Positions 4,464-64,000 of a DNA stretch of 64,000 nucleotides are shown here, piece by piece. The stretch comes from Desulfurivibrionaceae bacterium (GTDB lineage: Bacteria > Desulfobacterota > Desulfobulbia > Desulfobulbales > SURF-16), in assembly GCA_046537975.1 (NCBI GenBank), contig JBKHJR010000002.1, positions 35,695-99,694 of the forward strand, in the 5' to 3' direction. Positions within the stretch are counted from its first letter, which is position 1; each line of letters opens with the position of its first letter. A program made the position numbers and the translations under genes. The notes below the pieces were generated by a model. The model did no database searches. It saw nothing but the letters and a program-made list of their open reading frames with translations, and was not told where the DNA came from.

Positions 4464-5810
4464 ATGAGAATTATAATCGCCGGGGCCGGGCAGGTCGGTC
4501 AATATCTCTGTGCAAAGTTGTCCGAGGAAGGCCAGGAGGTTGTCCTGGTGGATAATGATGAGGCTAAGCTCAAACGGGTGGAGAGGAATCTGAACCTCCT
4601 CGCGGTCCATGGCAGTGCTGCCTCGGCCCGAATCCTGGAAGAGGCCGGAATAGACAGGTCGGACCTCTTCATTGCCGTGACGGACAGTGATGAAGTGAAC
4701 CTGATTTCCTGCATTATTTCCCGGCAGTACAATGTCATAAGCAGGGTGGCCAGAGTTCGTAATGAAGACTTTTACGGCTCGGGAAGGGCCCTTACCGAAC
4801 AGGCCCTGGGGGTTGATCTCCTTATCAGCCCCGATATCGCCATGGCTGATGAAACCATCAAGCTCAGTCATCTTTCCGATGCTTTTGATGTGGCTGAATT
4901 TGCCGGAGGTCAGGTGGTTCTTTTAGGATATAATATAAACCAGGGCAATCCGGCTATAGGGGTGTCATTGGCCCGGCTCCAGAAGAAACAGAAACAGAAC
5001 AATTTTGTTATTGTCTCAATTATAAGGGAAGAGAAAACGATAATCCCCCATGGGGATACGATCATCCAGGCGAATGACAAGATCTATGTTGTGGCCAGGA
5101 AAAAGGATATCCTGGCGATTGCCTCTCTTTTCCAATTCACCACCAGAGCTGCTAAAAGAGTCTTTATTATAGGAGGGGGAGCCATAGGCTATCTCATTGC
5201 CAAAAGGATGGAGCAGCACAGGTTCAATGTCTGCCTGGTGGAAGAGAAAAAAGAGCGCTGCGATTTCCTTACCAGTGAGCTGGAACATACCGTGGTCCTT
5301 AATTTCGATGGTCTGGAGTCTGACGCCCTTCTGGAAGAGGGAATCGATATGGCGGATTTGGTGATCTCGGTAACAGAAAACGATACCACCAATCTCCTCT
5401 CCAGTCTGCTTGCCAAGCACCACGGTGCTAAAAGATGTATAACCAAAATCACCAGGCCTGATTTCAGTCCTCTTCTGGGAAAATTAGGCATTGATGTGGC
5501 TCTGAGTCCCCGTCTGGTGGCTGCGGATATGATTCTGAGGTTTGTCCGGGGACGCGGCAAGATCCTTTCCGTGGCCACCCTCCAGAACAGTGATGCGGAA
5601 GTCATGGAAATGCTGGTCCCGGATGATGTCAAATTCAGGGATGTGCCCCTGAAAACTCTGGAATGGCCCAGAGACGCGGTGCTTGGGGCGATAATTCGCA
5701 GAAAGAAGGTAATTATTCCTTCAGGGGAGACCAAGTTGAAGGCAGGAGATAAAATGGTCATCTTTGCCACCCGAGAGGCGATCAGCAGGGTAGAGAATTT
5801 TTTTGAATGA
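4464..5810 (+). CDS. trkA: Trk potassium uptake system NAD-binding protein
   Basis: 448 aa with a duplicated RCK-N/RCK-C organisation. It has Rossmann motifs IIIAGAGQVG and IIGGGAIG. Confidence 0.9.
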   Translation: MRIIIAGAGQVGQYLCAKLSEEGQEVVLVDNDEAKLKRVERNLNLLAVHGSAASARILEEAGIDRSDLFIAVTDSDEVNLISCIISRQYNVISRVARVRNEDFYGSGRALTEQALGVDLLISPDIAMADETIKLSHLSDAFDVAEFAGGQVVLLGYNINQGNPAIGVSLARLQKKQKQNNFVIVSIIREEKTIIPHGDTIIQANDKIYVVARKKDILAIASLFQFTTRAAKRVFIIGGGAIGYLIAKRMEQHRFNVCLVEEKKERCDFLTSELEHTVVLNFDGLESDALLEEGIDMADLVISVTENDTTNLLSSLLAKHHGAKRCITKITRPDFSPLLGKLGIDVALSPRLVAADMILRFVRGRGKILSVATLQNSDAEVMEMLVPDDVKFRDVPLKTLEWPRDAVLGAIIRRKKVIIPSGETKLKAGDKMVIFATREAISRVENFFE

Positions 5811-5826
5811 TGCCGGCTCCCGCTTG

Positions 5827-5847
5827 CCTGAAACCTGAAAACTGAAC
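5827..5847 (+). repeat. Short heptad array (CCTGAAA CCTGAAA ACTGAAC) abutting the NUDIX start codon
   Basis: Three 7-nt units read directly in the trkA-NUDIX spacer. They resemble the GAAACUU/AACUNNN units that precede start codons in the larger elements. Confidence 0.4.
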
Positions 5848-5852
5848 TTATT

Positions 5853-6272
5853 ATGAAATGTCCGGAATGCGGCAAATCGATCCAGGTCTATAAACATCCC
5901 CTGCCCACCGTGGATGTGATAATTGAACTGGAAGGGGGGATTGTGCTGGTGGAAAGAAAAAATCCCCCGGTAGGCTGGGCTCTGCCCGGAGGTTTTGTGG
6001 ATCCGGGGGAGTCTCTGGAAAAGGCGGCCTGCAGAGAGGCCAGGGAGGAAACCGGGCTCGAGGTGACCCTGATCAGGCAGTTTCATACTTATTCCGATCC
6101 GGACAGGGACCCCAGATTTCATACCATTTCCACCGTGTATATAGGCCGGGCTGAGGGCACTCCCCGGGGCGGTGATGATGCCGGGAAAGCCCGGGTCTTT
6201 ACCCGGGATAACCTCCCTGATCTGGTTTTTGATCACGGCAGGATCATCCGGGATTATTTCCGGGAAAGATAA
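5853..6272 (+). CDS. NUDIX hydrolase with an N-terminal CxxC element
   Basis: 139 aa. Nudix box [24 protein letters not shown] (GX5EX7REUXEEXGU). The N-terminal MKCPECG contributes two Cys; I see no second Cys pair, so a zinc ribbon is not supported. Confidence 0.85.
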
Positions 6273-6348
6273 AACAAAAGTTGTTTTTACTTTTTTTCTC
6301 TGGTAAAAGGGGATTTTTGGAGAATAATGTTAAGGAGGAAGATGTCTA

Positions 6349-8100
6349 ATGGTTAACAATCAAACAACTCAAACCCCAACCACTCAATCTGATAATCTGG
6401 AAAGCGGCCAGGAAGATCTGAGTTTTGAATCCCTCTTTTACGAAGAGGAAATCAAAATAGCTACCGTAGGCGAGGTAGTTCCCGGTACCATTATTGGAAT
6501 ATCAGGTGGTTGTGCCATCATCGATATTGAAGACAAATCGGAAAGCGAGATTCCTTTAAGTGAGTTTAACAATCCCACGGATGAGGGACAGGTTCAAGTC
6601 GGTGATACTTTTGACGTTTTTGTGGAAAAACGTGAAGCTGAAGGGGGACTCAAGCTCTCCCGGGAAAAGGCGATAAGTATAAAGGTCTGGGAAAATATCG
6701 CCCAGATCCAGGAAGAAGACGGAGTTATTCAGGGAAGGGTAGACAGCCGGGTCAAAGGTGGTCTTTCCGTGGATATCGGTGTCCCTGCTTTTCTGCCTTA
6801 CTCCCAGATTGATCTCAGACCGGTCAAGGATCTTGACAGTCTTATCGGTGAAGAGTTCGATTTCAAGATCCTTAAATATAATCGTAAGCGCAATAACGTC
6901 GTTATTTCCCGCAGAGCCATTCTGGAAGAGGAAAGGCAGAAACTGCGCGACCAGATGAGGGAAACCCTGGAAGAGGGGGCCGTTCTCAGAGGCACCGTAA
7001 CCAATATTACGGATTACGGGGTCTTTATAGACCTGGGCGGCCTGGACGGTCTCTGTCATATTACCGATCTCTCCTGGGGAAGGGTTTCTCATCCCTCCAA
7101 GCTTTTCAGAGTAGGGGAAGAAACGGACGTCAAGGTTCTAAAGTATGACAAGGAGTCCGATAAGGTTTCCCTGGGTATAAAACAGCTTAAGCCCGATCCC
7201 TGGACCACCGTGGAAGAAAACTATCCGGTGGGCTCCAAGTGCACCGGCAAGGTGGTAAGCATCACTGATTACGGGGTTTTTGTTGAACTGGAAGAAGGGG
7301 TCGAGGGTCTGGTTCATATCTCGGAAATGTCCTGGTCCAAAAAGACCAAACATCCCTCCAAGCTGGTTTCGGTCGGCGATGAAATTGATGTGGTCGTCCT
7401 TAATATAGATGTCAATGCCAAGCGCATTTCCCTCGGCATGAAGCAGCTCCAGGAGAACCCCTGGGATGTGGTTATGCAGAATTATCCTGTCGGCTCCATA
7501 ATAGAGGGCAAGATCAAGAATATCACCGACTTCGGTATATTCATAGGTATTGAAGAGGGAATTGACGGTCTTATCCATGTCTCCGACATTTCCTGGACCG
7601 AGCGGATAAGGCACCCGTCCGAGAAGTACAGCAAGGGTGAAACCATCCAGGCAGTAGTCCTGAATATAGACCGGGATAATGAGAGGTTTTCACTGGGGAT
7701 CAAACAGCTGACCCCGGATCCCTGGCAGGAGGCTGTGCATAAATATCCGGTAGGATCGGTTATTGAAGGTGTGGTTACCAATATCACCGATTTCGGTGTC
7801 TTTGTGGAGATTGAAGACGGTATCGAAGGCCTTATTCATGTCTCGGAGATAAGCGAGGAAAAAACCGAGACTCCTGTGGGCATGTACAATGTGGGAGATA
7901 AAATTACCACCAAGGTAATCAGCCTCTCTCCGGAAGACCGCAAGATCGGTCTGTCCATAAAGGCCCTTTCGGAAAAAGGCAAAAGTGAAACCGGTGCTGC
8001 TGCAGAGGAATACGCCGACAAGCAGAAAGATACCGGTCCCGCCACCCTGGGTGATCTTTTCAAGGAAGAATTTGATAACCAGGAGAAAGAGAACGAATAA
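6349..8100 (+). CDS. rpsA: 30S ribosomal protein S1
   Basis: 583 aa with six tandem S1 (OB-fold) repeats carrying recurring GxV..I...G.FV.L..g.eGL.H.SE motifs. Strong SD TAAGGAGGAAG. Confidence 0.95.
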   Translation: MVNNQTTQTPTTQSDNLESGQEDLSFESLFYEEEIKIATVGEVVPGTIIGISGGCAIIDIEDKSESEIPLSEFNNPTDEGQVQVGDTFDVFVEKREAEGGLKLSREKAISIKVWENIAQIQEEDGVIQGRVDSRVKGGLSVDIGVPAFLPYSQIDLRPVKDLDSLIGEEFDFKILKYNRKRNNVVISRRAILEEERQKLRDQMRETLEEGAVLRGTVTNITDYGVFIDLGGLDGLCHITDLSWGRVSHPSKLFRVGEETDVKVLKYDKESDKVSLGIKQLKPDPWTTVEENYPVGSKCTGKVVSITDYGVFVELEEGVEGLVHISEMSWSKKTKHPSKLVSVGDEIDVVVLNIDVNAKRISLGMKQLQENPWDVVMQNYPVGSIIEGKIKNITDFGIFIGIEEGIDGLIHVSDISWTERIRHPSEKYSKGETIQAVVLNIDRDNERFSLGIKQLTPDPWQEAVHKYPVGSVIEGVVTNITDFGVFVEIEDGIEGLIHVSEISEEKTETPVGMYNVGDKITTKVISLSPEDRKIGLSIKALSEKGKSETGAAAEEYADKQKDTGPATLGDLFKEEFDNQEKENE

Positions 8101-30387: not shown

Positions 30388-30396
30388 AACGGTGGC

Positions 30397-30510
30397 CGGA
30401 GATCGGAAGTCGGAAGTTGGAAGTCGGAGATCAAAAGACAAAAGGAAGAAGACAGAGGTCAGACAACAGCAGCCTAAGTTTTTAATCTTGCACCTTGCAC
30501 CTTGAACCTT
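30397..30510 (+). repeat. Composite heptad element, copy A (dprA-topA spacer)
   Basis: Units in one register from 30397: CGGAGAT CGGAAGT CGGAAGT TGGAAGT CGGAGAT CAAAAGA CAAAAGG AAGAAGA CAGAGGT CAGACAA CAGCAGC CTAAGTT TTTAATC TTGCACC TTGCACC TTGAACC. It begins 10 nt after the dprA stop. It is the reverse-complement homolog of copy F. Confidence 0.9.
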
Positions 30511-30527
30511 AAGCCCTTAAAATATTT

Positions 30528-47354: not shown

Positions 47355-47367
47355 ATTATATTAGTTA

Positions 47368-47458
47368 CAAGGTGCAAGGTGCAAGGTTTTTTAAATCTAC
47401 GGCTTAGCCCTCTGCCCTCTGATCTCCGCCCTCCGACTTCCGCCCTCCGACCTCAGTC
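47368..47458 (-). repeat. Composite heptad element, copy B (rsmB-uvrA spacer)
   Basis: Plus-strand units in one register: CAAGGTG CAAGGTG CAAGGTT TTTTAAA TCTACGG CTTAGCC CTCTGCC CTCTGAT CTCCGCC CTCCGAC TTCCGCC CTCCGAC CTCAGTC. The last unit overlaps the rsmB stop codon. It fills almost the whole 98-bp spacer. Confidence 0.9.
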
Positions 47459-48802: not shown

Positions 48803-48876
48803 GATTGGTATTCTTTGTAGTGAAATTATTATGGCTCATCCGGATAATAAGTATCTGAATCCGGGTGATTCAATGT

Positions 48877-48932
48877 CTCTGATCTCCGACCTCCGACCTC
48901 TGACCTCCGACCTCTGACTTCCGATCTCCGAC
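48877..48932 (-). repeat. Heptad array, copy C (pgeF-rsmB spacer)
   Basis: Eight plus-strand units: CTCTGAT CTCCGAC CTCCGAC CTCTGAC CTCCGAC CTCTGAC TTCCGAT CTCCGAC. In the gene sense this reads GUCGGAG-type units starting 6 nt after the pgeF stop. Confidence 0.9.
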
Positions 48933-49918: not shown

Positions 49919-51682
49919 CTAAAAGCGGGCCTCAAAGGTCAGGTAGACCTGATCCATCTCCTCGATAGCCGGATACATCTGGGCGGCCAGAGGATCATCC
50001 GCCAGGTCATCTATATCCTGGGGTTCACCCAGCCAGAAGCCGCTGCCGGTGTAGTCATAGTCGTAGTGCTGATAGCCCAGGCGCATGAAGGCCTTGGAAT
50101 ACTCGGAGATCTTCCAGCCTGCGGGAATATCGTAGATCATATAGGCCTCATAGACACTGCCGCGGGTGGCAAGCTTGGCCTGATAGAGGTCGTCATGACC
50201 CGGGGTAAAGGAGATCCAGTCTTCGGAGCCGAAGTTATACTCCAGCCCCAGTTTCAGACCGAGATCATCCAGGTCGTAACGGGCCCCGGCATAAACACTG
50301 TAACCGTCTTTGGAATCAGTGGCATCTTCATCCCACCAGCTGGTCAGGAGTCCGGTCCCCATCTCGTCAACGCCGCTGGGATCGGTACGGCTCCAGCCGG
50401 CGCTGAGAAAGTAGTTCAGATTCCGCCATTTGTCCATGGCCGCGAAGCTGGTATGTTGGATGTCACCGAGGTTGGTCCGGTCCAGCATGCCGTTTTCATC
50501 TGAGTCTATCACACCGTTTCCGTCCACGTCACGGACTTGATAGGGTGTATCATATCCGTGTAGTGACATTTCCAGGATGTTGGGAAAATCAACGTCACTG
50601 GGGATGTTGAACATGTTAAAGACCCTGAAGGACTGGAAGTTGATGAAAAGGTCGTCCTTCTTGTAGACATCCCAGTTGATTCCGGCGAAATCAGTATCAT
50701 TGATGTGATCATCATTAGTGGTGACTCCGGACTCAAAGCCCCGGCCTATGCAGAGCCTTACCCGGCCGGAACCTTCGTTACCCAGGGGATTGAAATAGGC
50801 GTAGCCGAAGGTGGCGCCGTCAAAGGGATAGTTCATGAAGGCTGTGGGAGTGGCCATGGTGTCCGCGGGATCGTTGCCCATGCGGATATGCTCCGGGGGG
50901 CCGTCGGTGGTGGGCCGGCGGCCGATGGAGAACCAGATGGGGAGGTCCGCGATATTGTTCCAGTTTACGTAGGCCTGGTCCACGATCAGGTCGTTGTCAT
51001 CCGGCTGCCTGGCAGTGGTGCCGTCAAAGGAGAGAGCACTGGTGGTAAAGGGGCCGCCGAATTCCAGGGGAGTGGACTGGCCGCCGTAGGTCTTGTACAT
51101 GGCCAGGCGTCCCTTGAAGGTGACGTTTTCCATGGCCTTGACCTGCATATTCAGGCGCAGGCGGTTGGTGAACAGGGAGTCGTTGTCGTAGTCCTGGGCG
51201 GGATCAGGGGTGGCTGCTGTAAAAGGTATATCGGCCGGCGGTTGACCTCCTCCCAGAGAACCAGCTGGAATCACTCCGTTCTGGATGAGTTGATTCCTTT
51301 GGGATGCCGACATGGACCTAAACATTGGAACTAATTGGTTCTCAATATACCCGACTGAGGCATTACCCAATGTCATTGCATCAGCGATAGATACCATAGA
51401 GTCAGCCACATTCCCGGCACTGTACTGAGACGGAGCCTCGGCGCTCATGGAGTCTACCCGGGCCCGGAAGTCCCCGGAAAACTTAAAGCGGGAGGCCAGG
51501 TTCCAGTCCTCGATGTTGGCGTCAACATCATCCTGGATATACTGCTGGTCAGCCTTGAGCTCTTCCAGCTGCTGAGAGAGATTGTCGATTTGCTCCTGCA
51601 GGTCTTCCTGGCTGGCAGCGCCGGCGGTCAGCGGCAAAGCCAGGAGGCCGGTCAGGGCCAATGCGGAAAATTTTTTTACCAT
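49919..51682 (-). CDS. Outer-membrane beta-barrel protein with N-terminal coiled coil (DUF3373-like by recollection)
   Basis: I start it at ATG 51682, behind AAAGGAGGG. Signal peptide MVKKFSALALTGLLALPLTAGAA, a coiled coil (LQEQIDNLSQQLEELK), and a long Gly/Asp/Tyr-rich barrel ending LTFEARF. Confidence 0.6.
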   Translation of the reverse strand: MVKKFSALALTGLLALPLTAGAASQEDLQEQIDNLSQQLEELKADQQYIQDDVDANIEDWNLASRFKFSGDFRARVDSMSAEAPSQYSAGNVADSMVSIADAMTLGNASVGYIENQLVPMFRSMSASQRNQLIQNGVIPAGSLGGGQPPADIPFTAATPDPAQDYDNDSLFTNRLRLNMQVKAMENVTFKGRLAMYKTYGGQSTPLEFGGPFTTSALSFDGTTARQPDDNDLIVDQAYVNWNNIADLPIWFSIGRRPTTDGPPEHIRMGNDPADTMATPTAFMNYPFDGATFGYAYFNPLGNEGSGRVRLCIGRGFESGVTTNDDHINDTDFAGINWDVYKKDDLFINFQSFRVFNMFNIPSDVDFPNILEMSLHGYDTPYQVRDVDGNGVIDSDENGMLDRTNLGDIQHTSFAAMDKWRNLNYFLSAGWSRTDPSGVDEMGTGLLTSWWDEDATDSKDGYSVYAGARYDLDDLGLKLGLEYNFGSEDWISFTPGHDDLYQAKLATRGSVYEAYMIYDIPAGWKISEYSKAFMRLGYQHYDYDYTGSGFWLGEPQDIDDLADDPLAAQMYPAIEEMDQVYLTFEARF

Positions 51683-52047
51683 TTTTCCCTCCTTTAATTG
51701 GAAAAATTTTGTAAATGGGTTTGCTCGATGGTACTTAAACTGAGGCATTTTGACGCATTTTGACCGTAATTTCTACTTCATAATGGTGTAGTTGTCAAAT
51801 AAGTTGACAATTTTTTTTGAGGTGATATCCGGAAATCATTACTCAGGGAGGCAGAGTTTATCCCTGGATTCAGGGAGCCTGTTTAAAACCCACTGTTTAT
51901 AATGGGTACATAGTTTGCCTGCTGTGTGCCGTATTATTCAGCAGGGATGTCTGCCTGATGCGGTTTAAAGTTTACAGCTTACCCATGAATATATTAATGT
52001 ATCCTCACCATTACACCCCAAACTTTAAACCCAAGACCTAAAGATAT

Positions 52048-52896: not shown

Positions 52897-54567
52897 TCAT
52901 TTCTTCCCCAGTCTGGCTAAGGTGATAACAAGGGAGATAAGGGGGACGATCAGAAAGGCGGTAAGGGAGAGGGCGGTTCTCTGGAAGTCGTAATCAGTGA
53001 GGATTCTTCCCCACCTGTATTCATCGAGAGCAGGTTCCAGTCCCATTCCTATGAACAGTGCAACCCCCATTACGATAAATTCAAGGATGAAAAGGGATTT
53101 ACCGAAAATCCAGGCTCCGTCCAGAATGGTTCTTATCCAGATCATCCTGCCATAGAGGGAGTTGAGTACGGCAATACTTTTCCTCACATCAAAAAAAAGG
53201 GCCAGGGCTTTTTTATAAGACGAGGGGGTGGTTTCACCCATCAGTTTGCGGATACGGGCAATTTTCTTGGAGGCGGATTCCAGATTATCCCCAAAGCGGC
53301 TGAAAAAATTTTGGTACTTATAGTCCTGCCAGAAAGGCTTATAGACTTTCATCTCATGCTCTGCCTGCCTGACCCGGCGCTGAAAGGCATTTTTCTGCTT
53401 AAAGAATGTCTCCTGCCATTGCCTCAAGAGGTATTTGCTTTCTTTTGACAGAGTCAGAAGATCGTAGTATCCCTGGTGCTGAAAAAGGCTTGTTAACTGA
53501 TTCAGCTTCTCTTTTCTTTCCTGTTGGCTCCTGTCTTCTTCATCAAACCAGACATCCAGATTGGCAAATGTCCTACTGAGCGAGGATATATATTCTTCAG
53601 CTTCCTGCTTCACTTTCGAGTAGCGGGAGGAGGCGATATCCTCAACCAGTTCCTGTTCCGGGATAAAAGCAGGATCCATGAGAGCGGTCATGAAGTACTC
53701 CCTGCTTTCTTTCATGAGGTCGCGGAGCTCTTTTACACTGTTATTATCCAGGCCTGTCTCCACTGCCAGCTGTATCTTGCGGTAGGCTATTTCATCTGCG
53801 TAATAAATGCTTTTTTCGGCAATGGACAGGGCATTACGGCTCCGCCAAGGATCGTCATTTATCTGATAATAACGGGACAGGAGAAAGCCTATGTAAATCC
53901 TTTCTTTTTCCAGGGTGGCGAGGATCTCCGCTTTTTTCAGGTATGAGAGCATTTCCTCAAAATAGCCGGTTTCCAGAGAGAGAAAGGCCAGGGCCACGTT
54001 GGCACAGAAAGTTTTACCCTTTGGTTCATTTGTTTCTTTTTTAAGCAGGTCCCGGGCTTCTTCATACTTTCTGACTCTTAAGTAATCCAGGCCCAGGTAG
54101 AGATTGCGCCTGTCAATATTTCTCTGGCCGGTTCTTTCCAGCTTTTGCCATTCCGGCTGTATGCTGAAAGCAACCTGATAGAGAAAGCGGATCTGATAAA
54201 GGCGGCTGATATCCAGAAAGGCGATGAGTACGAGGATCTCTGTATCCTGGGCCAGTTGTGAATTGGTGATGCCGGTATCCAGCCTCGACAGCGGAGAGCT
54301 GTAATCCGGGAAGATTTTCCGGTATATGTCGTTTAATTCCGAAAAGGACAGCCGGCCCACTCTGCTGAGTCCGCGGATGTTCATGGTCAGCAGACGGCTG
54401 GGGCATTCGGAGGGAGTATGCCCGGTCATGCTGCAGTAAAAACAGGGGGGACCTTCCAGGGAGACCGGCAGTTCTCTGGCAGGAAGAAGGAAGTCCATAC
54501 CAGGTGCCATGTCGGAACCGGTCTCAGCTTCCCGGTAATTTTCCGGAGAATTCAGGTCATCGTTCAT
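52897..54567 (-). CDS. CCHC zinc-knuckle protein with a large helical (TPR-like) domain and two C-terminal TM helices
   Basis: 556 aa. Residues 42-55 CFYCSMTGHTPSEC match exactly CX2CX4HX4C. The long alpha-helical middle has a TPR-like segment (YLGLDYLRVRKYEEARDLL). The hydrophobic C-terminus is FILEFIVMGVALFIGMGL and LSLTAFLIVPLISLVITLA. Confidence 0.6.
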   Translation of the reverse strand: MNDDLNSPENYREAETGSDMAPGMDFLLPARELPVSLEGPPCFYCSMTGHTPSECPSRLLTMNIRGLSRVGRLSFSELNDIYRKIFPDYSSPLSRLDTGITNSQLAQDTEILVLIAFLDISRLYQIRFLYQVAFSIQPEWQKLERTGQRNIDRRNLYLGLDYLRVRKYEEARDLLKKETNEPKGKTFCANVALAFLSLETGYFEEMLSYLKKAEILATLEKERIYIGFLLSRYYQINDDPWRSRNALSIAEKSIYYADEIAYRKIQLAVETGLDNNSVKELRDLMKESREYFMTALMDPAFIPEQELVEDIASSRYSKVKQEAEEYISSLSRTFANLDVWFDEEDRSQQERKEKLNQLTSLFQHQGYYDLLTLSKESKYLLRQWQETFFKQKNAFQRRVRQAEHEMKVYKPFWQDYKYQNFFSRFGDNLESASKKIARIRKLMGETTPSSYKKALALFFDVRKSIAVLNSLYGRMIWIRTILDGAWIFGKSLFILEFIVMGVALFIGMGLEPALDEYRWGRILTDYDFQRTALSLTAFLIVPLISLVITLARLGKK

Positions 54568-55793: not shown

Positions 55794-56600
55794 TCAGGAA
55801 AAATTTTTATCAGATGATCCGTTGTTGCTTTCCATCTGAAGAAGCCGGATGTTCTGAGCCTCATACCTGTCTGAATCACGGTTATTGGGGGCTATCTGAA
55901 ATTCAAAAATATTAGAGGGGTTGTGAAAGACCTGTGGTGAGCTTTCAAAGGGAGATTGGGAACAATGGAAAAAAAGACTGTCACTTTCCAGTCCCAGGGC
56001 GGTCAATCTGTAATAACGCATAAATCCAAAGCCCCGATCCGGCTTATAGCTGATCACTGTGCCCCGGTACCATTCTCTGGGATCATGATCACCCTGAATC
56101 GGTAAAAGGCCGGGAACCAGGAAGCCGGAAATAAAGAAATCGGCGGTCTCTCTTAAACTCGAGCTGACATTATTGAAACCGATGACCTCAACCCGGCAAC
56201 CTCTGTTCTGGATGGCCGTTACCAGACGGATAAAGTCTCCATCCCCGGTTACCAGGATAATCCGGTCGAGGTTGCGGGACTGGAGGAGGGCGTCAATGGC
56301 CAGGTCCATATCAGCGTTGGCTTTGGTGGTAACAACCCCCTCTTCATCAACATAATGCTGAACATATTTTTTAATGACCTTAAAACCGTGATTACGGACG
56401 ATGTTATGGTAATTATGAACCTTCTGCCGGTATTCGCCATCGTTTTCAGTCCTTTCCCGGTCTTCAGCCAGATAGGAGTTGGCCCTTAAGAGCTGCGAGT
56501 TCCCTCCATTGGCCAGATCAACCAGGACATCATAACGCATGCCGTATCCTCCGCTTAGCCGGATGTTTTCTGCGTCAACGTATATACCGGTTTTAAACAT
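55794..56600 (-). CDS. NYN/LabA-like ribonuclease domain fused to a cold-shock (CSD/OB) domain
   Basis: 268 aa. NYN motifs GIYVDAENI, ADMDLAIDAL and ILVTGDGDFIRLV. The C-terminal YRGTVISYKPDRGFGFM...LFFHCSQ...FEFQI matches the cold-shock domain pattern. Confidence 0.8.
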   Translation of the reverse strand: MFKTGIYVDAENIRLSGGYGMRYDVLVDLANGGNSQLLRANSYLAEDRERTENDGEYRQKVHNYHNIVRNHGFKVIKKYVQHYVDEEGVVTTKANADMDLAIDALLQSRNLDRIILVTGDGDFIRLVTAIQNRGCRVEVIGFNNVSSSLRETADFFISGFLVPGLLPIQGDHDPREWYRGTVISYKPDRGFGFMRYYRLTALGLESDSLFFHCSQSPFESSPQVFHNPSNIFEFQIAPNNRDSDRYEAQNIRLLQMESNNGSSDKNFS

Positions 56601-56605
56601 AAGAG

Positions 56606-56633
56606 TTCGGAGATCAGGAGTCGGAGATCAGAA
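56606..56633 (+). repeat. Heptad array, copy E1 (5' leader of the NYN-CSD gene, C/U-rich in the gene sense)
   Basis: TTCGGAG ATCAGGA GTCGGAG ATCAGAA on the plus strand (a 14-nt unit twice). It lies 6-33 nt upstream of the minus-strand ATG at 56600. Confidence 0.8.
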
Positions 56634-56646
56634 TGTCGTTGTGCCT

Positions 56647-56676
56647 AATATATTTGCAATCTTGAGCAATGTCCAA
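56647..56676 (-). promoter_or_regulatory. Candidate sigma-70 promoter for the NYN-CSD / receiver-TPR / zinc-knuckle genes
   Basis: Minus strand: TTGGAC (56676-56671), 18 nt of spacer, then TATATT (56652-56647). The predicted leader of about 40 nt consists of array E1. Confidence 0.4.
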
Positions 56677-56784
56677 GGAAGATTCGGTTTTATTGTTTTC
56701 TCCATTGCAGTCAGTCAGCTAAACAATAAGCTCTTTAGCCGAGTTGATCTGCATACTTTTTCCCGCTGAATTGCCGGCCTTGCC

Positions 56785-56833
56785 CTCTGTCCTCAGACTT
56801 CAGACTTCAGACTTCAGACTTTAGACCTCTGCC
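56785..56833 (-). repeat. Heptad array, copy E2 (immediately downstream of guaA)
   Basis: Plus-strand units CTCTGTC CTCAGAC TTCAGAC TTCAGAC TTCAGAC TTTAGAC CTCTGCC. In the gene sense these are GUCUGAA/GUCUGAG units starting about 14 nt after the guaA stop. Confidence 0.9.
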
Positions 56834-56846
56834 CCCGCCCACTGAA

Positions 56847-58397
56847 TCACTCCCATTCAATGGTCCCGGGAGGTTTGGAGGAAATGTCGTAGACCACCCG
56901 GTTTACCCCCTTCACTTCATTTATCAGGCGGTTCGAAATGCGGCCCATCAGCTCGTAAGGCAGCTTGGACCAGTCTGCAGTCATGGCATCAACGCTGTCT
57001 ACGGAGCGCAGGGCGATTACGTGTTCATAGGTCCGCTCATCCCCCATAACACCAACGGTCTGAATGGGCAAAAGCACGGCAAAGGACTGCCATACCTTGT
57101 AATAGTAGCCTGAACTCTTCATCTCGTCCAGTATAATAGTATCAGCCTGTCTCAGGATTTCAAGGCGTTCCCCGGTAACCTCTCCCATTATTCTTATCGC
57201 CAGTCCGGGACCGGGAAAAGGCTGGCGGTAAATGGCTTCCTTAGGCAGTTCCAGGGTGAGACCGAGTTCCCGGACTTCATCCTTGAACAGTTCCCGCAGG
57301 GGTTCAATAAGATCGAGCTTCATAATCTCTGGCAATCCCCCCACATTATGATGGGATTTAATGGCTGCCGCTCCCCGGAAGGACACGGATTCAATGACAT
57401 CCGGATAAAGGGTGCCCTGGGCCAGGAATTTGACGTCTCCCAGTTTGACAGCCTCTTTTTCAAAGATCTTTATGAAGCCCTGACCGATTATCCTCCGTTT
57501 TTCTTCGGGATCCCTTATGCCCTGGAGCTGGTCAAGAAAATAATCGACAGCATCGACCTCAATCACCCGGAGATGCTCCTGTTCCTTGAAAAAGCGCATA
57601 AGCCTCTTTGTTTCTCCGGCACGCATCAGACCGTTATTCACATAGATGCAGGTCAACTGGTCGCCTACAGCCCGGTGCACCAGGGCGGCGGTTACCGAGG
57701 AATCGACTCCGCCGGAAAGAGCGCAGATTACTTTATTATCACCGACTTTTTCCTTGATGGCGGCCACCGTGGTATCCACAAAGGATTCCATGGTCCATGC
57801 CGGCCGGCAGTTGCAGATATTAAAGATAAAGTTGGCCAGCACATCATTGCCGATAAGGGTATGAGCGACCTCCGGGTGGAACTGCACGCCAAACAGGGGC
57901 TTTTCCTGGTGACGGACCGCGGCCAGGGGGCTGTGTTCACTCCGGGCTGCGGCCTGGAATCCGGCGGGGGCCCGGTCAATCCTGTCGCCATGGCTCATCC
58001 AGACCTGATAGCGGGGCGAACCGGTAGCCAGGTCGGCAAATAAGCCGTCGGTGCGGAGGATCTCCAGGTCCGCCTTGCCGTATTCCCTTTTCGCGGCCCC
58101 GGCCACAGCACCGCCTAATTGGTGCATCATTAACTGGGCTCCGTAGCAGATGCCAAGCACGGGAATACCCAGATCCAGAAGATCGGGGTCGGTCATCGGG
58201 GCATCTTCGTCATAGACGCTGGCCGGGCCACCGGACAGAACTATGCCTGAAGGCTTCATCTTCTTGAGTTCGTCAAGGGACAGGGTGTAGGGATGGATCT
58301 CACTGTAGACCCTCTGTTCCCTGATCCGCCTGGCTATGAGCTGGGTGGTCTGGGAACCGAAATCAAGGACAATTATTTTTTCCTGATGTATATCCAT
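56847..58397 (-). CDS. guaA: GMP synthase (glutamine-hydrolysing)
   Basis: The start is set at ATG 58397 ([20 protein letters not shown]...), which matches the usual GuaA N-terminus. The track start (TTG 58409) lies inside the heptad array. GATase and ATP-PPase (SGGVDSSV) domains, C-terminus TIEWE. Confidence 0.95.
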
Positions 58398-58400
58398 GGA

Positions 58401-58558
58401 CAGTTTCAAGTTTCAAGTTTCAAGTTTCAAGTTTCAAGGCACAAGGCACAAGGTACAAGGTATAAGGTGCAAGATTAAAGGCTTAGGCTGCTGTTGTCTG
58501 ACCTCTGTCTTCTGTCTTTTGACCTCCGACCTCCGACCTCCGACCTCCGACTTCCGGG
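58401..58558 (-). repeat. Composite heptad element, copy F: fills the whole guaB-guaA spacer
   Basis: 22 consecutive plus-strand units in a single register from 58407: CAAGTTT x4, CAAGGCA x2, CAAGGTA x2, TAAGGTG, CAAGATT, AAAGGCT, TAGGCTG, CTGTTGT, CTGACCT, CTGTCTT x2, TTGACCT, CCGACCT x3, CCGACTT, CCGGGGC. It ends 2 nt before the guaB stop. Confidence 0.95.
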
Positions 58559-58560
58559 GC

Positions 58561-60021
58561 TCAGCTCATTCGGTAATTGGGCGCCTCTTTGGTGATTATT
58601 ACGTCATGGACGTGGCTTTCTTTGAAGCCGGCCGGGCTGATCTTGACAAATCTGGCTTTTTCCTGGAGTTCCGCAATGCTCCGGGCCCCCAGATAACCCA
58701 TGCCGGACCGCAGACCTCCGGTGAGCTGGTAGATGGTATCACTTAAAGGGCCGCGATAGGGAACCTTGCCTTCAATGCCCTCAGGAACGAATTTTGCCGC
58801 AGATTCCACATCCGCCTGGCTGTAACGGTCTGCACTCCCCTCTTTCATGGCTCCCAGTGATCCCATGCCCCGGTAGCCTTTGTAGGTTCTCCCCTGATAG
58901 AGAAAGGTCTCACCGGGAGTTTCTTCACAACCGGCCAGAAGACTGCCTATCATTATGGAATCCGCCCCTATGCCTATGGCCTTGCTCAAGTCGCCGGACT
59001 GCTTTATCCCGCCGTCGCTGATCACGGGGATTCCGTGTTTCCGGGCCGCGGTGCTGCAATCACTGATAGCCGTAAGCTGAGGGACGCCGACACCGGCCAC
59101 GATCCTGGTTGTGCAGATAGAGCCGGGTCCAACTCCAAGCTTGAGGGCGTCGGCTCCGGCCCTGATCAGATCTTCGGCAGCCTCGGCAGTGGCAATATTG
59201 CCGGCAATTACCTGAAGGCCGGAAAAATCCGCCTTGATTTTTTTCAGGGCATTAACGATATTGCTGGAATGACCATGGGCTGAATCCAGGACCAGAACAT
59301 CGACGCCGGCGGCCTGTAGGTTGTCGACATGCTCCAGGGAGATGTCTGCCCCTATGGCAGCTCCGGCCAGGAGTCTGCCCAGGGAGTCTTTGGCGGCCAG
59401 GGGGTATTTCCTGATCTTTTCCAGATCCTTGATGGTGATAAGGCCGTGCAGGCTGCCGTCCTCGTTGACCACCAGCAGCTTTTCAATCCGGTGCTCATGC
59501 AGCAGGGCCTTGGACTGCTCCAGAGTGATACCGGGCTTGGCGGTAACCAGATTCTTGCTGGTCATGACATCCTTGACCTTAAGCCCCAGGTCGGAAACAA
59601 AGCGCATATCACGGTTGGTGACGATTCCGGCCAGTTTGCCGTCCCTCAGCACGGGAACACCGGAGATATGAAAGGTCTGCATAATCTTTTCAATCTCGCC
59701 CACAGTCTGGTCTTCCTCGGCGGTGACCGGATCCACAATCATACCGGATTCGGATTTTTTGACTTTCTCCACCTCAAGCAGCTGTTTTTTCAGGCTCATG
59801 TTCTTATGTATTATCCCTATCCCTCCTTCGCGGGCCATGGCAATAGCAGTCCGGTGTTCGGTTACCGTGTCCATGGCTGCACTGATCAGGGGCATGTTAA
59901 GGGAAATTTCCCTGGTCAATCTGGTTGAGAGATCCACCTCGGAAGGAAGTACGGATGACTTCCTGGGTACCAGGAGAATGTCGTCAAAAGTGAAGGCCTC
60001 ATTTATATTTTCCGGTAGCAT
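58561..60021 (-). CDS. guaB: IMP dehydrogenase
   Basis: 486 aa TIM barrel with a CBS pair and the catalytic loop [11 protein letters not shown]. Confidence 0.97.
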
Positions 60022-60023
60022 AG

Positions 60024-61808
60024 TTATTCCTTCCAGTCAGGACGTAGTTTTAATTCTGTAAGTTGCTTGCGGTTGACCGGGGCCGGGGCTTCGGTCATGG
60101 GACAGGTGGCTTTCTGGGTTTTGGGGAAGGCGATTACATCCCTGATAGTTTCCCTGCCGGTAAGAATCATCAGCAGCCGGTCCAGGCCGAAGGCAATCCC
60201 ACCGTGGGGCGGTGCTCCGAGTTCCAGGGCCCGCAGCAGAAAGCCGAATTTATCCTCGGCTTCTTCCCGGCTGATGCCCAGAGCCTCGAAGGCCCTGTCC
60301 TGGATATCTTTTTGATGGATACGCAGACTGCCGCCCCCTATTTCCGTGCCGTTTAAAACCAGGTCATAGGCCCGGCTTCTGACTCGGCCCGGATCGGATT
60401 CCAGCAGATCCAGATCTTCCTCCCGGGGTGCGGTGAAGGGATGATGGACCGCAGTGTGGCGGCGTTCTTCATGATCATATTCCAGCAGAGGAAAGTCTGT
60501 TATCCACAGGAAGTTGAGGGTGTTTCCGTCCAGCAGTTCAAGCCTGCGGGCCAGCTCAAGCCTGAGTTCAGCCAGGGCCTCGTGGACAACCGGACTCTTG
60601 TCAGCCACAAAGAACAGGAGATCTCCTTCTGCCGCCTCCAGGTCTTCGCTTATCCTGCCCCGTTCTTCCGGAGTGAAAAATTTGGCAATTGGTGACTGCC
60701 ACTCGCCTTCAGGCTTCACCTTGACCCAGGCCAGTCCTTTGGCCCCGTACTGGCCGGCGAATTCGGTCAGGTCGTCCAGGTCCTTGCGGGAGAAATCGGC
60801 ACAGCCTTTGGCGTTGATGCTCTTCACTATGCCGCCGGTTTCCACTACATTTTGAAAGACCTGGAAGCTGCAGTCCCTGACCGTTTCGGTCAGATCGACC
60901 AGCTCCATGCCGAAGCGGGTGTCGGGCCGGTCCGTACCGAATCTGGCCACGGCTTCATCATAGGTCAGGCGGGGAAAGGGCGGTTTCAGGTCCCTGTTTC
61001 TGGTTTCTTTGAAAATTGCCTGCATTATCCCTTCGGACAGGGTAAAGATATCTTCTTCATTAATAAAGGAAAGCTCCATGTCCAGCTGGGTGAATTCGGG
61101 CTGGCGGTCGGCCCGCAGATCCTCGTCCCGGAAACACTTGACTATCTGATAGTAGCGGTCCATACCTGCGGCCATCAGCAGCTGCTTAAAGAGCTGGGGG
61201 GACTGGGGCAGGGCGAAGAAGCGGCCGGTATTAACCCGGCTGGGTACCAGGTAGTCCCTGGCCCCTTCAGGAGTGGAGCGGGTGAGCACCGGGGTCTCGA
61301 TTTCCAGAAAATCAGCATCGTTCAAGTAGCTGCGGATGGCCTGGCAGGCTTTGTGCCGGGTTATGAGGTTGTCAGCCATTCCCGGGCGGCGCAGGTCGAT
61401 ATAACGATAGGCAAGCCGGAGGTTGTCGGAGACCTCCACTTCCTCGTCCAGGGGGAAGGGCGGGGTTTTGCTGGTATTGAGTATCTTCAGTTCATCGGCA
61501 AAGACCTCTATTTCTCCGGTAACCAGCTTTTCATTGATCATTCCTTCCGGCCGGCGGGCGACTTTTCCCCGCACTGCAATCACCCATTCACTCCGCAGGG
61601 TGTGGGCCTTGGCATGGACCTCGGAATTGTGCTCCGGATTGAATACCACCTGAGTGATACCCCAGCGGTCCCGCAGGTCAATAAATATAACACCCCCGTG
61701 ATCCCGTCTTCTCAGTACCCAGCCCATCAGGACGATTTCCCGGTCAAGATTGGCCGCATTCAGTTCATTGCAGCTATGACTACGTTGCAGCGTTCCCATG
61801 GATTCCAT
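60024..61808 (-). CDS. aspS: Aspartate--tRNA ligase
   Basis: 594 aa class IIb synthetase. OB anticodon-binding N-domain, motif 2 [18 protein letters not shown], motif 3 GIAFGLDRL. Confidence 0.97.
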
Positions 61809-61820
61809 AGGATCTCCTAT

Positions 61821-61884
61821 TAAGGTTCAAGTTTCAAGTTTCGGGGTGCGGTATGATGGTTTGTCTGACACCTCTTGCTCTTAG
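61821..61884 (-). repeat. Short/degenerate heptad element, copy G (hisS-aspS spacer)
   Basis: TAAGGTT CAAGTTT CAAGTTT, then GGTTTGTCTGACACCTCTTGCTCTT, which resembles the copy F middle TGTTGTCTGACCTCTGTCTTCT. It lacks the CTCCGAC array. The aspS start keeps a normal SD (AGGAG). Confidence 0.6.
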
Positions 61885-61889
61885 AATTG

Positions 61890-63176
61890 TTATAATATTT
61901 CAAATTTTTCCCCTCCTACCGCCTCCATGATATCATCTCCCCATTCCGCCGGATCGCTTTTTATGGCCAGCGCTGCCTGGTCCCTGGTTCTCATGTCCCG
62001 AAGCCGGGCCTCCCCCTTTTCAAACTCTTCTTCTCCCACGATCAGGACAAAATCGGCTTTGGCCCGGTCAGCCTGTTTCATCTGGCTTTTTAAACTGCGG
62101 TCCATGACATCCATGGCCACAGCCAGTCCTTTTTCCCTTAAGTAATAGGTCACCGGGAAGGCCATGTCCTGGGCTTTAGGGCCGAGAGCGGCTATAAAAA
62201 GGTCGGTCCTGGTTTTTCCGGGCCGGGAATCCTTTTCAGACAGGAGGAGGGCCAGACGTTCAATCCCCATGGCAAAACCCAGTCCCGGGACATCCGGTCC
62301 CCCCAGCTCCCCGACCAGGCCGTCATAACGCCCCCCGGCTCCCACCGCACTCTGGGCTCCCAGGTCGTCGGTTATAAGTTCAAATGTGGTACGGCAGTAA
62401 TAGTCCAGGCCCCTGACCATGAAGGAGTTGACAGTATAGGGAATTCTCAGGAGGCTGAGACTTTCTTCAACCGCCCGGAAGTGGTCGGAGCATTCCGGGC
62501 AGAGATGCTGGATTATCAATGGCGCCTGTCGATACTGTTCCCGGCAGTTTTCATTTTTGCAGTCCAGAACACGGAGGGGATTGTAATCCCTGCGCCTTTC
62601 GCAGTCGTCACAGATGGAATCACATTGGTTCAGAAACTGCCGCAGGGCCCGATTAAATTCCGGCCGGCATTCCGGGCATCCCAAGGAATTTATCTCCAGT
62701 CTGGCACTCAGGTCGAGGCTGGTGAGCAGATACCAGGACATGGCCATCACTTCCGCATCTATCCGGGGATGATCAAGGCCGACAGCCTCGACACTGATCT
62801 GGTGAAATTGTCGCAGGCGGCCTTTCTGGGGTCTTTCATGCCGGAACATGGGGCCGATAGTATAAAGCTTCTGCAACGGTTTTGCCGTGTACAGCCCCTG
62901 TTCGATGTAGGCCCGCAGAACCGAGGCGGTCCCTTCCGGCCTCATGGTGACCGAGTCCCCGTTGCGGTCGCTGAAGGTGTACATCTCCTTTTCCACGATA
63001 TCGGTGGCCGCCCCCAGAGAACGGACAAAGAGATCGGTCTTCTCCAGAATCGGGACCCTTATTTCCCGGAATTCAAAACGGCGGAAAATATCCCTGGCAG
63101 TTTCTTCGATAAAACGATATATGTCCACCTCATCCGGGACGATGTCTTTAAATCCCTTTAAGGCCTTAACTTTCAC
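61890..63176 (-). CDS. hisS: Histidine--tRNA ligase
   Basis: 428 aa class IIa synthetase. Motif 2 FRHERPQKGRLRQFHQ, motif 3 GGGRYDGL, and a C-terminal anticodon-binding domain. Confidence 0.95.
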   Translation of the reverse strand: MKVKALKGFKDIVPDEVDIYRFIEETARDIFRRFEFREIRVPILEKTDLFVRSLGAATDIVEKEMYTFSDRNGDSVTMRPEGTASVLRAYIEQGLYTAKPLQKLYTIGPMFRHERPQKGRLRQFHQISVEAVGLDHPRIDAEVMAMSWYLLTSLDLSARLEINSLGCPECRPEFNRALRQFLNQCDSICDDCERRRDYNPLRVLDCKNENCREQYRQAPLIIQHLCPECSDHFRAVEESLSLLRIPYTVNSFMVRGLDYYCRTTFELITDDLGAQSAVGAGGRYDGLVGELGGPDVPGLGFAMGIERLALLLSEKDSRPGKTRTDLFIAALGPKAQDMAFPVTYYLREKGLAVAMDVMDRSLKSQMKQADRAKADFVLIVGEEEFEKGEARLRDMRTRDQAALAIKSDPAEWGDDIMEAVGGEKFEIL

Positions 63177-63315
63177 GAATCCTCCATCATTAAGTTGTAT
63201 TTAAAATAAATCTGATTAAAATAGCCTGTTCCGGGGGGCAAGTCAAGGGAATGATATATGATGAATTTTGAATTGTGATTCAGTAATTGAAGGAAATTGC
63301 CCGATCAGTTACTTT

Positions 63316-63378
63316 GAGGTCAGAGGTCAGAGGTCAGAGGTCAGAGGTTCATAACTTGTAACTCACAACTAATATACT
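63316..63378 (+). repeat. Heptad array, copy H (serS 5' leader), in register with the start codon
   Basis: GAGGTCA x4, GAGGTTC, ATAACTT, GTAACTC, ACAACTA, ATATACT, then ATG at 63379: nine units exactly. Confidence 0.9.
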
Positions 63379-64000
63379 ATGCTGGCACTAAGTTTTATCA
63401 GGGACAATATCGATCTGGTCAGGGAAAAAACCAGGCTCCGGGGGTTTCCGGTCACCGGTCTTGATGATTTTATCGAGATTGATCAAAAAAGGCGGGAGCA
63501 GCTGACAGAGGTGGAAAGCCTGCGAAACCGGAGGAAGACGGTATCCCGGGAGATTGCCGAATTAAAGAAAAAAGGCGAATCCGCTGATGAACTGATCTCC
63601 GAGATGCGGACGGTCAGTGACAGGATCAAGGAGCTTGAGCGGAGCCTTAACGTTATAGAGGATGATCTTCAGAAAATTGTCATGGAGATTCCCAATCTCT
63701 GCCATGATTCGGTTCCGGTGGGAGAGGATGACAGCGATAATGTGGAAATCAGGAGATGGGGGGAGCCCCCTTCCTTTTCCTTTACCCCGAAAGCCCACTG
63801 GGAACTGGGGGAGGCGGACGGCAGCCTTGATTTCAAGAGAGCCGCTAAACTGTCAGGAGCCCGTTTTACTTTGATGACAGGATTTGCCGCCCGTCTGGAG
63901 CGGGCTCTTACCAATTTCATGCTGGATCTTCATGCTGGAAGGCATGGTTATAAAGAGGTTCTGCCACCCTTTATGGTTAATTCCGCCACCATGACCGCCA
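63379..64000 (+). CDS. serS: Serine--tRNA ligase, N-terminal part (continues past the right edge)
   Basis: Own translation: MLALSFIRDNIDLVREKTRLRGFPVTGLDDFIEIDQKRREQLTEVESLRNRRKTVSREIAELKKKG... This is the SerRS coiled-coil arm. It is followed by PKAHWELGE...LDFKRAAKLSGARF (core domain start). It is not in the ORF track because no stop lies in the window. Confidence 0.9.
   Translation, partial: MLALSFIRDNIDLVREKTRLRGFPVTGLDDFIEIDQKRREQLTEVESLRNRRKTVSREIAELKKKGESADELISEMRTVSDRIKELERSLNVIEDDLQKIVMEIPNLCHDSVPVGEDDSDNVEIRRWGEPPSFSFTPKAHWELGEADGSLDFKRAAKLSGARFTLMTGFAARLERALTNFMLDLHAGRHGYKEVLPPFMVNSATMTA

Follow-up and report, generated by a model that had tools for sequence, protein, structure and literature searches.

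A bipartite heptanucleotide-repeat element in the guaB-guaA spacer of a Desulfurivibrionaceae bacterium, probably a copy of a dispersed intergenic repeat

In the genome of a Desulfurivibrionaceae bacterium (assembly GCA_046537975.1), the guanine nucleotide genes guaB and guaA are separated by a spacer of 163 nt that is written largely in 7-nt units, and guaA starts without a Shine-Dalgarno (SD) sequence. The locus raises the question of whether this repeat serves the joint expression of the two genes or is only tolerated between them; an initial annotation, made from the sequence alone, had suggested that it is compatible with, or required for, coupled expression. The DNA analysed, referred to as the window, comprises 64,000 nt of contig JBKHJR010000002.1 (positions 35,695 to 99,694 of the forward strand), and coordinates are counted from its first nucleotide. 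The spacer is best explained, at a probability of roughly 0.6, as a copy of a lineage-specific, dispersed intergenic heptanucleotide-repeat element, carried as a tolerated passenger and not as a guaBA-specific device. The element is a previously undescribed representative of a known class of intergenic heptanucleotide repeats, the long simple sequence repeats (LSSRs) or short tandemly repeated repetitive (STRR)-like sequences.

The guaB-guaA junction and its heptad element

All genes between 44532 and 63176 are carried on the minus strand. Within this block aspS, guaB and guaA are co-directional, with gaps of 2 nt (aspS-guaB) and 163 nt (guaB-guaA, 58398-58560).

61890..63176, minus strand: hisS (NCBIfam match)
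60024..61808, minus strand: aspS (NCBIfam match)
58561..60021, minus strand: guaB, IMP dehydrogenase (TIGR01302, 610.7 bits; present in the list of open reading frames, ORFs); stop codon UGA at 58561-58563
56847..58397, minus strand: guaA, GMP synthase (NF000848, 804.5 bits); ATG start at 58395-58397

guaA is intact and conserved. Its ATG (58397) is the true start, with relatives aligning from residue 1 (MDIHQEKI) and the family profile beginning at residue 8, and the TTG at 58409 sits within the repeat and is an artefact of it. The 20 nt 5' of the ATG (GAAACUUGAAACUGUCC) contain no GGAG or GAGG core, and the duplex of the last 20 nt with ACCUCCUUA amounted to +0.4 kcal/mol, computed at the script-called TTG start. 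With a gap of 163 nt and no SD, the junction lacks the layout of classical translational coupling, in which stop and start overlap or abut and the SD usually lies inside the upstream gene.

In gene sense the spacer was parsed as 5 nt + 22 × 7 nt + 4 nt = 163 nt. After GCCCC, units 1-10 read GGAAGTC, GGAGGTC (×4), AAAAGAC, AGAAGAC, AGAGGTC, AGACAAC and AGCAGCC; units 11-22 read TAAGCCT, TTAATCT, TGCACCT, TATACCT, TGTACCT, TGTGCCT (×2) and TGAAACT (×5), followed by GTCC and the ATG. Identity at lag 7 was 0.731, other lags giving 0.19-0.31 except for lag 14 (0.66), and the best lag among 4-12 in 5000 shuffles averaged 0.30 ± 0.02 with a maximum of 0.40. Tandem Repeats Finder (TRF) reported period-7 arrays at 58402-58438, 58435-58473, 58504-58518 and 58521-58556, arrays of 5.1-5.6 copies among them. 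Over ~25 nt in mid-spacer (sense positions ~57-80) lag-7 identity falls to background. The element consists of two repeat arms and a degenerate core, though all of it can be written in a single register.

58521..58555, minus strand: 5' purine-rich arm, GGAAGUC + GGAGGUC ×4, beginning 5 nt past the guaB stop
58500..58520, minus strand: transitional purine heptads AAAAGAC AGAAGAC AGAGGTC, also in the dprA-topA copy described below
58472..58499, minus strand: degenerate core AGACAAC AGCAGCC TAAGCCT TTAATCT, where periodicity lapses, inside the sequence common to the second copy
58437..58471, minus strand: 3' pyrimidine-rich arm, part 1, TGCACCT TATACCT TGTACCT TGTGCCT ×2 (ACCUUGN type), with a degenerate homologue in the spacer of the nearest relative (L001)
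58402..58436, minus strand: 3' arm, part 2, (UGAAACU)×5, A/U-rich (TRF 58402-58438, 100% matches), ending 4 nt before the guaA AUG

Every GGAGGU amounts to a perfect SD-like hexamer (GGAGGUC/anti-SD duplex, -10.2 kcal/mol), and the tract as a whole has the head-to-tail 7-nt units, in several copies and beyond chance, by which heptanucleotide LSSR and STRR-like arrays are recognised. Much of what the initial annotation had read from the junction is borne out: the coordinates of the 163-nt spacer, the guaA start without SD, the spurious TTG and the GAAACUU units running up to 4 nt before the AUG. Its 22 heptads stand, but not as an uninterrupted tract, given the ~25-nt core at background; its five GGAGGUC-type units past the guaB UGA are likewise present, the first (GGAAGUC) beginning 5 nt and not 3 nt after the stop.

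A second full copy of the element fills another stop-to-start gap at a distance of ~28 kb.

30388..30527, plus strand: second full copy, filling the dprA-topA spacer, made up of five GGARRTC units, the core seen at guaB-guaA and units of the ACCTTGN type (alignment, exact 25-mer)

This spacer measures 140 nt, or 20 heptads. The two copies hold an exact 25-mer in common (AGAGGTCAGACAACAGCAGCCTAAG; 58482-58506; 0 expected by chance) and align end to end, differing by a whole-heptad indel (an extra AAAAGGA in the dprA-topA copy, which also has ACCTTGC units like those of the guaB-guaA copy). No fixed-length terminal inverted repeats or target-site duplications were found at the borders of these copies, of which there are two only. 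When the 22-nt core was compared by blastn with all 200 loci, the matches fell on its heptad part only, and a metagenome scan with the same 22 nt gave no match; on these searches the core appears private to the source genome. The spacer of a housekeeping operon is thus filled by a bipartite heptad element that was copied at least once within the genome, varies by whole heptads and is absent from the nearest relative, with a near-identical second copy 28 kb off.

Heptad tracts elsewhere in the window and in relatives

Period 7 was the sole repeat period in the window (5 runs, 286 bp), periods 4-6 and 8-12 giving 0. Lag-7 identity reached at least 0.40 in 12 of 40 intergenic regions; 11 of the 12 lie between co-directional genes and one is divergent (the serS leader), and no convergent region carried a tract (0/6). 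Pooled lag-7 identity was 0.325 in intergenic regions vs 0.249 in coding sequence. GGARRTC, ACCTTGN and GAAACTT units recur at several loci, so that intergenic tracts with related units occupy many loci of one genome (64 kb sampled), and the genes on either side have housekeeping roles unrelated to one another (dprA-topA, pgeF-rsmB, rsmB-uvrA, guaA-NYN, hisS-aspS, serS). Besides the two full copies, the following tracts were located.

47355..47452, minus strand: rsmB-uvrA spacer, holding a shorter relative of the element with a GGAGGGC/GGAAGTC arm, TAAGCC and CTTGCAC ×3
48875..48931, minus strand: purine arm alone (GGAGATC, GGAAGTC, AGAGGTC, GGAGGTC and further units), immediately past the pgeF stop
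56601..56846, minus strand: guaA-NYN spacer, with a CUGAAGU/CAGAGGU arm just past the guaA stop and, directly preceding the following start, a GAUCUCC arm complementary to it
61820..61851, minus strand: GAAACTT heptads 5' of the aspS SD (hisS-aspS junction)
63311..63352, plus strand: GAGGTCA ×4.7 in the serS 5' region, then AACTTGT-type units

The rsmB-uvrA and hisS-aspS tracts are shorter and more degenerate relatives of the full element. The architecture in common has a purine/G-rich arm starting 0-14 nt past the upstream stop and a second arm, rich in pyrimidines or A/U, reaching almost to the next start. Across the co-directional spacers with tracts, GC skew was +0.28 for the first half and -0.16 for the second half (10/11 G-first), and spacers without tracts had no G-first trend (7/16). 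An account of this orientation by replication strand was considered and rejected: cumulative GC skew climbs through the whole window without a switch and the arrays follow the gene strand, which is weak evidence.

With a duplex with ACCUCCUUA of ≤ -4.4 kcal/mol taken as threshold, an SD was present in ~20 and absent in ~33 of 53 window genes (crude ORF-called starts). SD-less starts typically stand behind A/U-rich, G-poor leaders with motifs such as CTAATATAAT, ACTAATATACT and TTAAAATATTT, and the (GAAACUU)5 block before guaA is a leader of that type. Behind tracts 6 of 7 starts were SD-less, compared with ~27 of 46 elsewhere, an association too weak to claim.

Relatives were collected by a GuaA scan of 185,579 species genomes, which gave 80 loci, 75 of them with guaB before guaA; the other 5 end short of guaB. 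GuaA places the window in the Desulfobulbales, and the nearest sequences are metagenome-assembled genomes (MAGs) named "Desulfobia" (L001, 87% amino acid identity; Ca. Desulfobia pelagia, 80%). Among the 75 relatives the guaB-guaA spacer ranged from 12 to 2741 nt (median 57, interquartile range 40-148) and measured at least 163 nt in 16, and an SD preceded guaA in 14 and was absent in 61. E. coli K-12 has 68 bp between the two genes.

L001 is syntenic over serS-hisS-aspS-guaB-guaA-NYN through to uvrA (72-80% nucleotide identity) and has no GGAGGTC-type purine arm at any of the orthologous spacers, so that it serves as a natural deletion control. Its guaB-guaA spacer is 75 nt long and holds only degenerate pyrimidine heptads homologous to the right arm in the window; it is therefore not a clean empty site. 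The guaB-guaA spacers of the other 74 relatives are unrelated to that of the window, and in one of them (L016) the junction holds a bipartite element of other heptads, GGGGATT ... CCCTAAT, independent of that in the window. At the hisS-aspS junction the heptads of L001 differ from those of the window. Across 1.33 Mb including the relatives' loci, period-7 tracts dominate (31 vs 0-10 at other periods) with lineage-dependent units. Unit number and sequence thus change between close relatives, as the L001 comparison and the lineage-specific units illustrate. On these alignments the arrays are labile, lineage-specific and recurrent, and guaA is evidently expressed in relatives that have no heptad arrays.

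Several further observations were made at these junctions. The L001 hisS ORF (5327..6610) runs through a heptad tract at 6577-6610 (GGGAACT ×2, CTGAATT ×2) before its stop, the heptads forming a C-terminal extension, whereas the hisS-aspS tract of the window (GAAACTT) sits outside the ORF. Purine-rich heptads within ~10-15 nt past the guaA stop were seen in L011 (11556-11584), L035 (11560-11588), L074 (5451-5484) and the window (56781-56834); L011, L035 and L074 belong to separate Desulfobulbales lineages, and the unit in L035 is GAAACTT, as in the right arm of the guaB-guaA tract. The guaB-guaA spacers of L011, L013, L017 and L002 contain inverted arrays of CACGGAGA / TCTCTGTG-type units, which resemble the "class 2" paired sites (TCTCCGTS) of Geobacter metallireducens and so make up a second paired tandem-repeat family at the same junction. 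In L071, inverted GAATACC / GGTATTC arrays of ~8 units each (271-325 and 737-791) enclose a ~410 bp segment, a geometry that is possibly that of a mobile-element end.

Explanations for the spacer

The element has been copied between intergenic sites, as the exact 25-mer in common with dprA-topA shows. If the spacer is a tolerated copy of it, the tract would lengthen and shorten in 7-nt steps by replication slippage. It is probably transcribed within an aspS-guaB-guaA message, going by the missing promoter and terminator motifs: a consensus scan of 58398-58560 found no sigma-70-like promoter on the gene strand (an E. coli-type model, hence a weak exclusion) and no intrinsic terminator there, the single match lying on the plus strand inside guaB. 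Rfam covariance models gave 0 matches at E ≤ 1 on either strand of 56000-64000. The RNA of the tract would be weakly structured, and its G-poor, A/U-rich 3' arm would act as an unstructured SD-less leader from which guaA initiation is SD-independent and S1-assisted, in keeping with established knowledge of A/U-rich leaders. The tract may be mildly useful as an unstructured spacer. Since SD-less, unstructured leaders are used by most genes here, it would be tolerated at the junction and not needed for guaBA coupling.

The stronger half of the initial suggestion, that the tract is required for coupled expression, is unsupported. The tract occurs at many window junctions, with a homologous copy at dprA-topA; relatives lack it at guaB-guaA; a missing SD is ordinary (~33/53 window genes, 61/75 relatives' guaA); and the hairpin between the arms is no more stable than shuffles and is not kept in the second copy. 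The comparison of the junction in relatives, which had been proposed as a check, also leaves the requirement without support, L001 having 75 nt without the GGAGGTC arm and the 74 others unrelated spacers. Nor is guaBA "normally tightly linked", as had been assumed, in view of the 68 bp in E. coli K-12 and the median of 57 nt with 16 of 75 relatives at 163 nt or above. Compatibility with coupled expression is the part of the claim that remains reasonable (guaA intact, no promoter or terminator seen, genes co-directional). For guaBA the outcome is deflationary: the junction would be no special coupling device, its spacer length and missing SD being usual in the clade.

Some findings fit the passenger explanation less well. 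The GGARRTC, ACCTTGN and GAAACTT families recur at several loci, which random slippage alone would not predict, and the tracts are confined to co-directional spacers with a fixed polarity, G-first and C-second (10/11 window spacers); with such features, a function tied to the sequence, or a mechanism that generates it, may still be considered. The operon and the S1-type initiation are points that we infer, and the repeat survey of the source genome covered the 64 kb window.

Such a function could be protein binding. The arrays would then be cis-acting sites, in mRNA, single-stranded or double-stranded DNA, for a protein that recognises nucleic acid in steps of 7 nt (for instance an OB-fold protein of the cold-shock or S1 type, a GGA binder similar to CsrA, or a nucleoid protein of the IHF/HU type), and guaA would belong to its post-transcriptional or architectural regulon. 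The same unit families at multiple unrelated junctions, the restriction of tracts to co-directional spacers and one 5' leader, the fixed polarity, and the exactly five left-arm units in both full copies (also five in Geobacter sites) speak for it, and comparable binding has been proposed by MacGregor for TAACTGA repeats (S1/Csp/CsrA) and by Aklujkar for the Geobacter pairs (IHF/HU). However, the units vary within the element (GGAGGUC, AAAAGAC, ACCUUGU, GAAACUU) and between relatives, so that no single motif emerges; the nearest relative is without arms at all orthologous sites; no candidate protein was identified; and the Xanthomonas and Nostoc repeats, when tested, had no function found. A binding site is for these reasons considered possible but rather unlikely.

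Alternatively, a GGAGGU/ACCUU hairpin with G-U pairs might join the guaB stop to the guaA start, or mask and unmask the leader, and so couple translation. The minimum free energy (MFE) structure of the spacer indeed has GGAGGU/ACCUU helices of 5 bp every 7 nt between the arms, and, with its G-U pairs, this pairing is peculiar to the sense transcript. The fold is nevertheless less stable than dinucleotide shuffles (-37.6 vs -46.1 kcal/mol, z = +2.0), a trimmed version gave -36.5 vs -39.8 kcal/mol (z = +0.8), and sense and antisense energies are alike. Only 5/7 positions of the arms pair, with G-U allowed. The dprA-topA arms are predicted to be unpaired (z = +2.3), GGAAGUC standing opposite the same ACCUUGC without compensating changes, and the 35-nt GAAACUU block beside the AUG lies outside the hairpin, 3' arm part 2 being predicted unpaired. 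With rsmB-uvrA at +0.4 and pgeF-rsmB at +1.5, z ranged from +0.4 to +2.3 in the four tract spacers on both strands, which accordingly have no stem beyond composition of the kind that defines stable extragenic palindromes (repetitive extragenic palindromes, REP, and bacterial interspersed mosaic elements, BIME). The sole tract spacer folding better than chance is guaA-NYN (246 nt), whose arms are truly complementary: a long-range hairpin between the purine arm and the GAUCUCC arm is predicted (MFE -71.9 kcal/mol, z = -2.0; 6 of 200 shuffles equally stable). For guaB-guaA a coupling hairpin is judged very unlikely.

The five tandem GGAGGU units could instead retain ribosomes as a standby platform: terminating or free 30S subunits would be held there and then slide through the unstructured spacer until they reach the AUG of guaA, which has no SD. 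The -10.2 kcal/mol of each GGAGGUC with the anti-SD, the start of the array 5 nt past the UGA, the weakly structured spacer downstream and the lack of an SD of its own in guaA would suit such a role. It is made highly improbable by the ~123 nt between the last SD-like unit and the AUG, by the weak units at equivalent positions in other copies (GGAAGUC -3.6, UGAAGUC -0.5, AGAAGAC -1.0 kcal/mol), by metagenome relatives that often have AGAAGTC or AGAGATC (among the matches listed) and by relatives that express guaA without such an array. There is equally little to commend an independent promoter, or a terminator plus promoter, that would give guaA a transcript of its own and leave the repeat without bearing on coupling. 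TTGAAA, which agrees with a -35 hexamer at 5/6 positions, does return at 7-nt intervals through the 3' arm, and the long spacers of relatives could house promoters, but no promoter or terminator was recognised on the gene strand and no suitably spaced -10 precedes the AUG, within the weak E. coli-type scan. G-quadruplexes (G4) were tried separately and rejected: the ViennaRNA gquad model picks no G4 in guaB-guaA, dprA-topA or rsmB-uvrA. GGAGGUC offers only G2 runs, and many units (GGAAGUC, AGAAGAC) are without paired G runs.

Known heptamer repeats and wider distribution

Cyanobacterial STRR heptanucleotides were reportedly described by Mazel in 1990. Like the tracts here, the cyanobacterial STRR and LSSR arrays are made of 7-nt tandem units, are intergenic, occur at many loci with lineage-specific units and have a proposed slippage origin; in the part of the literature compared they are described as simple arrays, the bipartite stop-to-start layout with a common core being a feature of the present element. 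Among bacterial LSSRs, heptamers are the most abundant class and have been put down to polymerase slippage (Mrazek 2007, cited through PMC4679880 and PMC4692102). Beyond guaBA, the value of the locus is that of a clean, well-bounded heptanucleotide-repeat example, the bacterial excess of such repeats having been known since 2007.

The closest precedent is the class 3 arrays of Geobacter metallireducens (Gmet_I301-308 A/B; Aklujkar et al. 2009, PMC2700814), eight pairs of ~five tandem heptads each, with one array 3' of a gene and the other 5' of the next co-directional gene; proB-proA, a biosynthetic operon of two genes, is among the junctions occupied. They are multicopy and lineage-specific, being absent from G. 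sulfurreducens, and IHF/HU binding was hypothesised (PMC2700814). As in the present element, paired arrays stand at junctions, a purine-rich array preceding a pyrimidine-rich one, and the Geobacter unit MTYCTGA is the reverse complement and rotation of TCAGRAK, i.e. the AGAAGTC/CAGAGGT family found here. The Geobacter arms are near-perfect complements, whereas the right arm here (ACCTTGN/GAAACTT) is only partly complementary to GGAGGTC; the present host is also of a different order, and a conserved non-repeat core is present in the two copies.

GGGAATC in Xanthomonas and GGGGA(C/T)T in Nostoc/Anabaena are intergenic at ~100 or more loci (Rehm et al. 2015, PMC4692102). Their G-rich strand is the coding strand 0-50 bp past stops and the non-coding strand just before starts; co-directional genes are favoured, divergent ones under-represented, and paired inverted arrays occur (PMC4692102). 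The repeats are transcribed, vary in length and sequence between close relatives and have revealed no function despite testing (PMC4692102). A GGGGATT-type unit is carried by the guaB-guaA junction of L016 (GGGGATT/CCCTAAT). Unlike the present tracts, the repeats of Rehm et al. show no sense/antisense preference, and their G3-4 runs form G-quadruplexes in vitro, whereas GGAGGUC has G2 runs and G4 is not favoured in the model. TAACTGA direct repeats, present in marine Beggiatoaceae and in some Cyanobacteria and Bacteroidetes, accompany housekeeping genes of all classes, a translational role being suggested and not shown (MacGregor 2015, PMC4679880). They agree with the present tracts in lying directly 5' of start codons, in downstream genes that are mostly SD-less and in the housekeeping genes concerned, and differ in having one dominant unit in 2-6 copies, no paired purine arm past the upstream stop and unrelated host taxa. 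REP/BIME and MITEs (miniature inverted-repeat transposable elements) likewise lie dispersed between genes, are co-transcribed in operons and have been copied from locus to locus, but here a stable palindromic stem is missing (z > 0). A literature search for the explicit repeat strings returned no bacterial paper.

A metagenome scan for (RGARRTC)×4 gave at least 120 contigs of 37-69% GC. Where a complementary array lay within 250 nt, the purine arm came first in 25 cases vs 1 ambiguous (among the matches listed, L081-L200), and the same G-first polarity holds for 8/8 Geobacter class 3 pairs and 10/11 tract-bearing window spacers. Because a palindromic pair reads alike on both strands, this polarity is a property of the element and not of transcription direction. 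An early impression that arrays lie in sense (7 of 7) was weakened, as near-palindromic pairs have no defined orientation. Relative to flanking ORFs, RGARRTC tracts among the matches listed were sense in 19, antisense in 14, convergent in 13, divergent in 10 and inside in 35 cases, crude ORF calls that are uninformative.

Any account, be it slippage combined with selection against structured leaders or Rho loading, a protein that reads heptads or end addition, must explain the purine/G-first polarity common to Geobacter, Xanthomonas and many metagenome contigs (among the matches listed). Simple slippage leaves both the polarity and the invariant 7-nt period unexplained. Because of these two features, and because the same rule holds for the different heptamer of Xanthomonas, the arrays might be seen as footprints of an unrecognised, widely distributed mechanism and not as passive slippage products, a proposal regarded as quite unlikely. 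Its basis could be the invariant period with varying units, the frequent position of arrays beside gene ends and the G-rich strand running 5'->3' away from the neighbouring gene, G-first order having been counted in ~22 of 23 metagenome elements among the matches listed. Such a mechanism could consist in the recognition of nucleic acid, 7 nt at a time, by a protein that supports SD-independent expression inside operons, or it could be a templated 3'-end addition of G-rich heptamers at breaks with subsequent joining.

One metagenome contig (L175, 41% GC) carries, on the minus strand at ~2391-2530, (AGAAGTC)4 followed by AGACAAA ×3, AGACAGA, AGATAAC and AGCAATA and then (CTGTGTT)n, a similar passage from purines to pyrimidines, whose AACAGCA-like centre recalls that of the window element. 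In the window, an ORF of 609 amino acids (49919..51748, minus strand) within the segment 49700-52047 has no NCBIfam match; the syntenic position in L001 (~280 nt there) is without this segment, which makes a lineage-specific insertion possible. A further ORF (52897..54567, 556 amino acids) likewise has no NCBIfam match.

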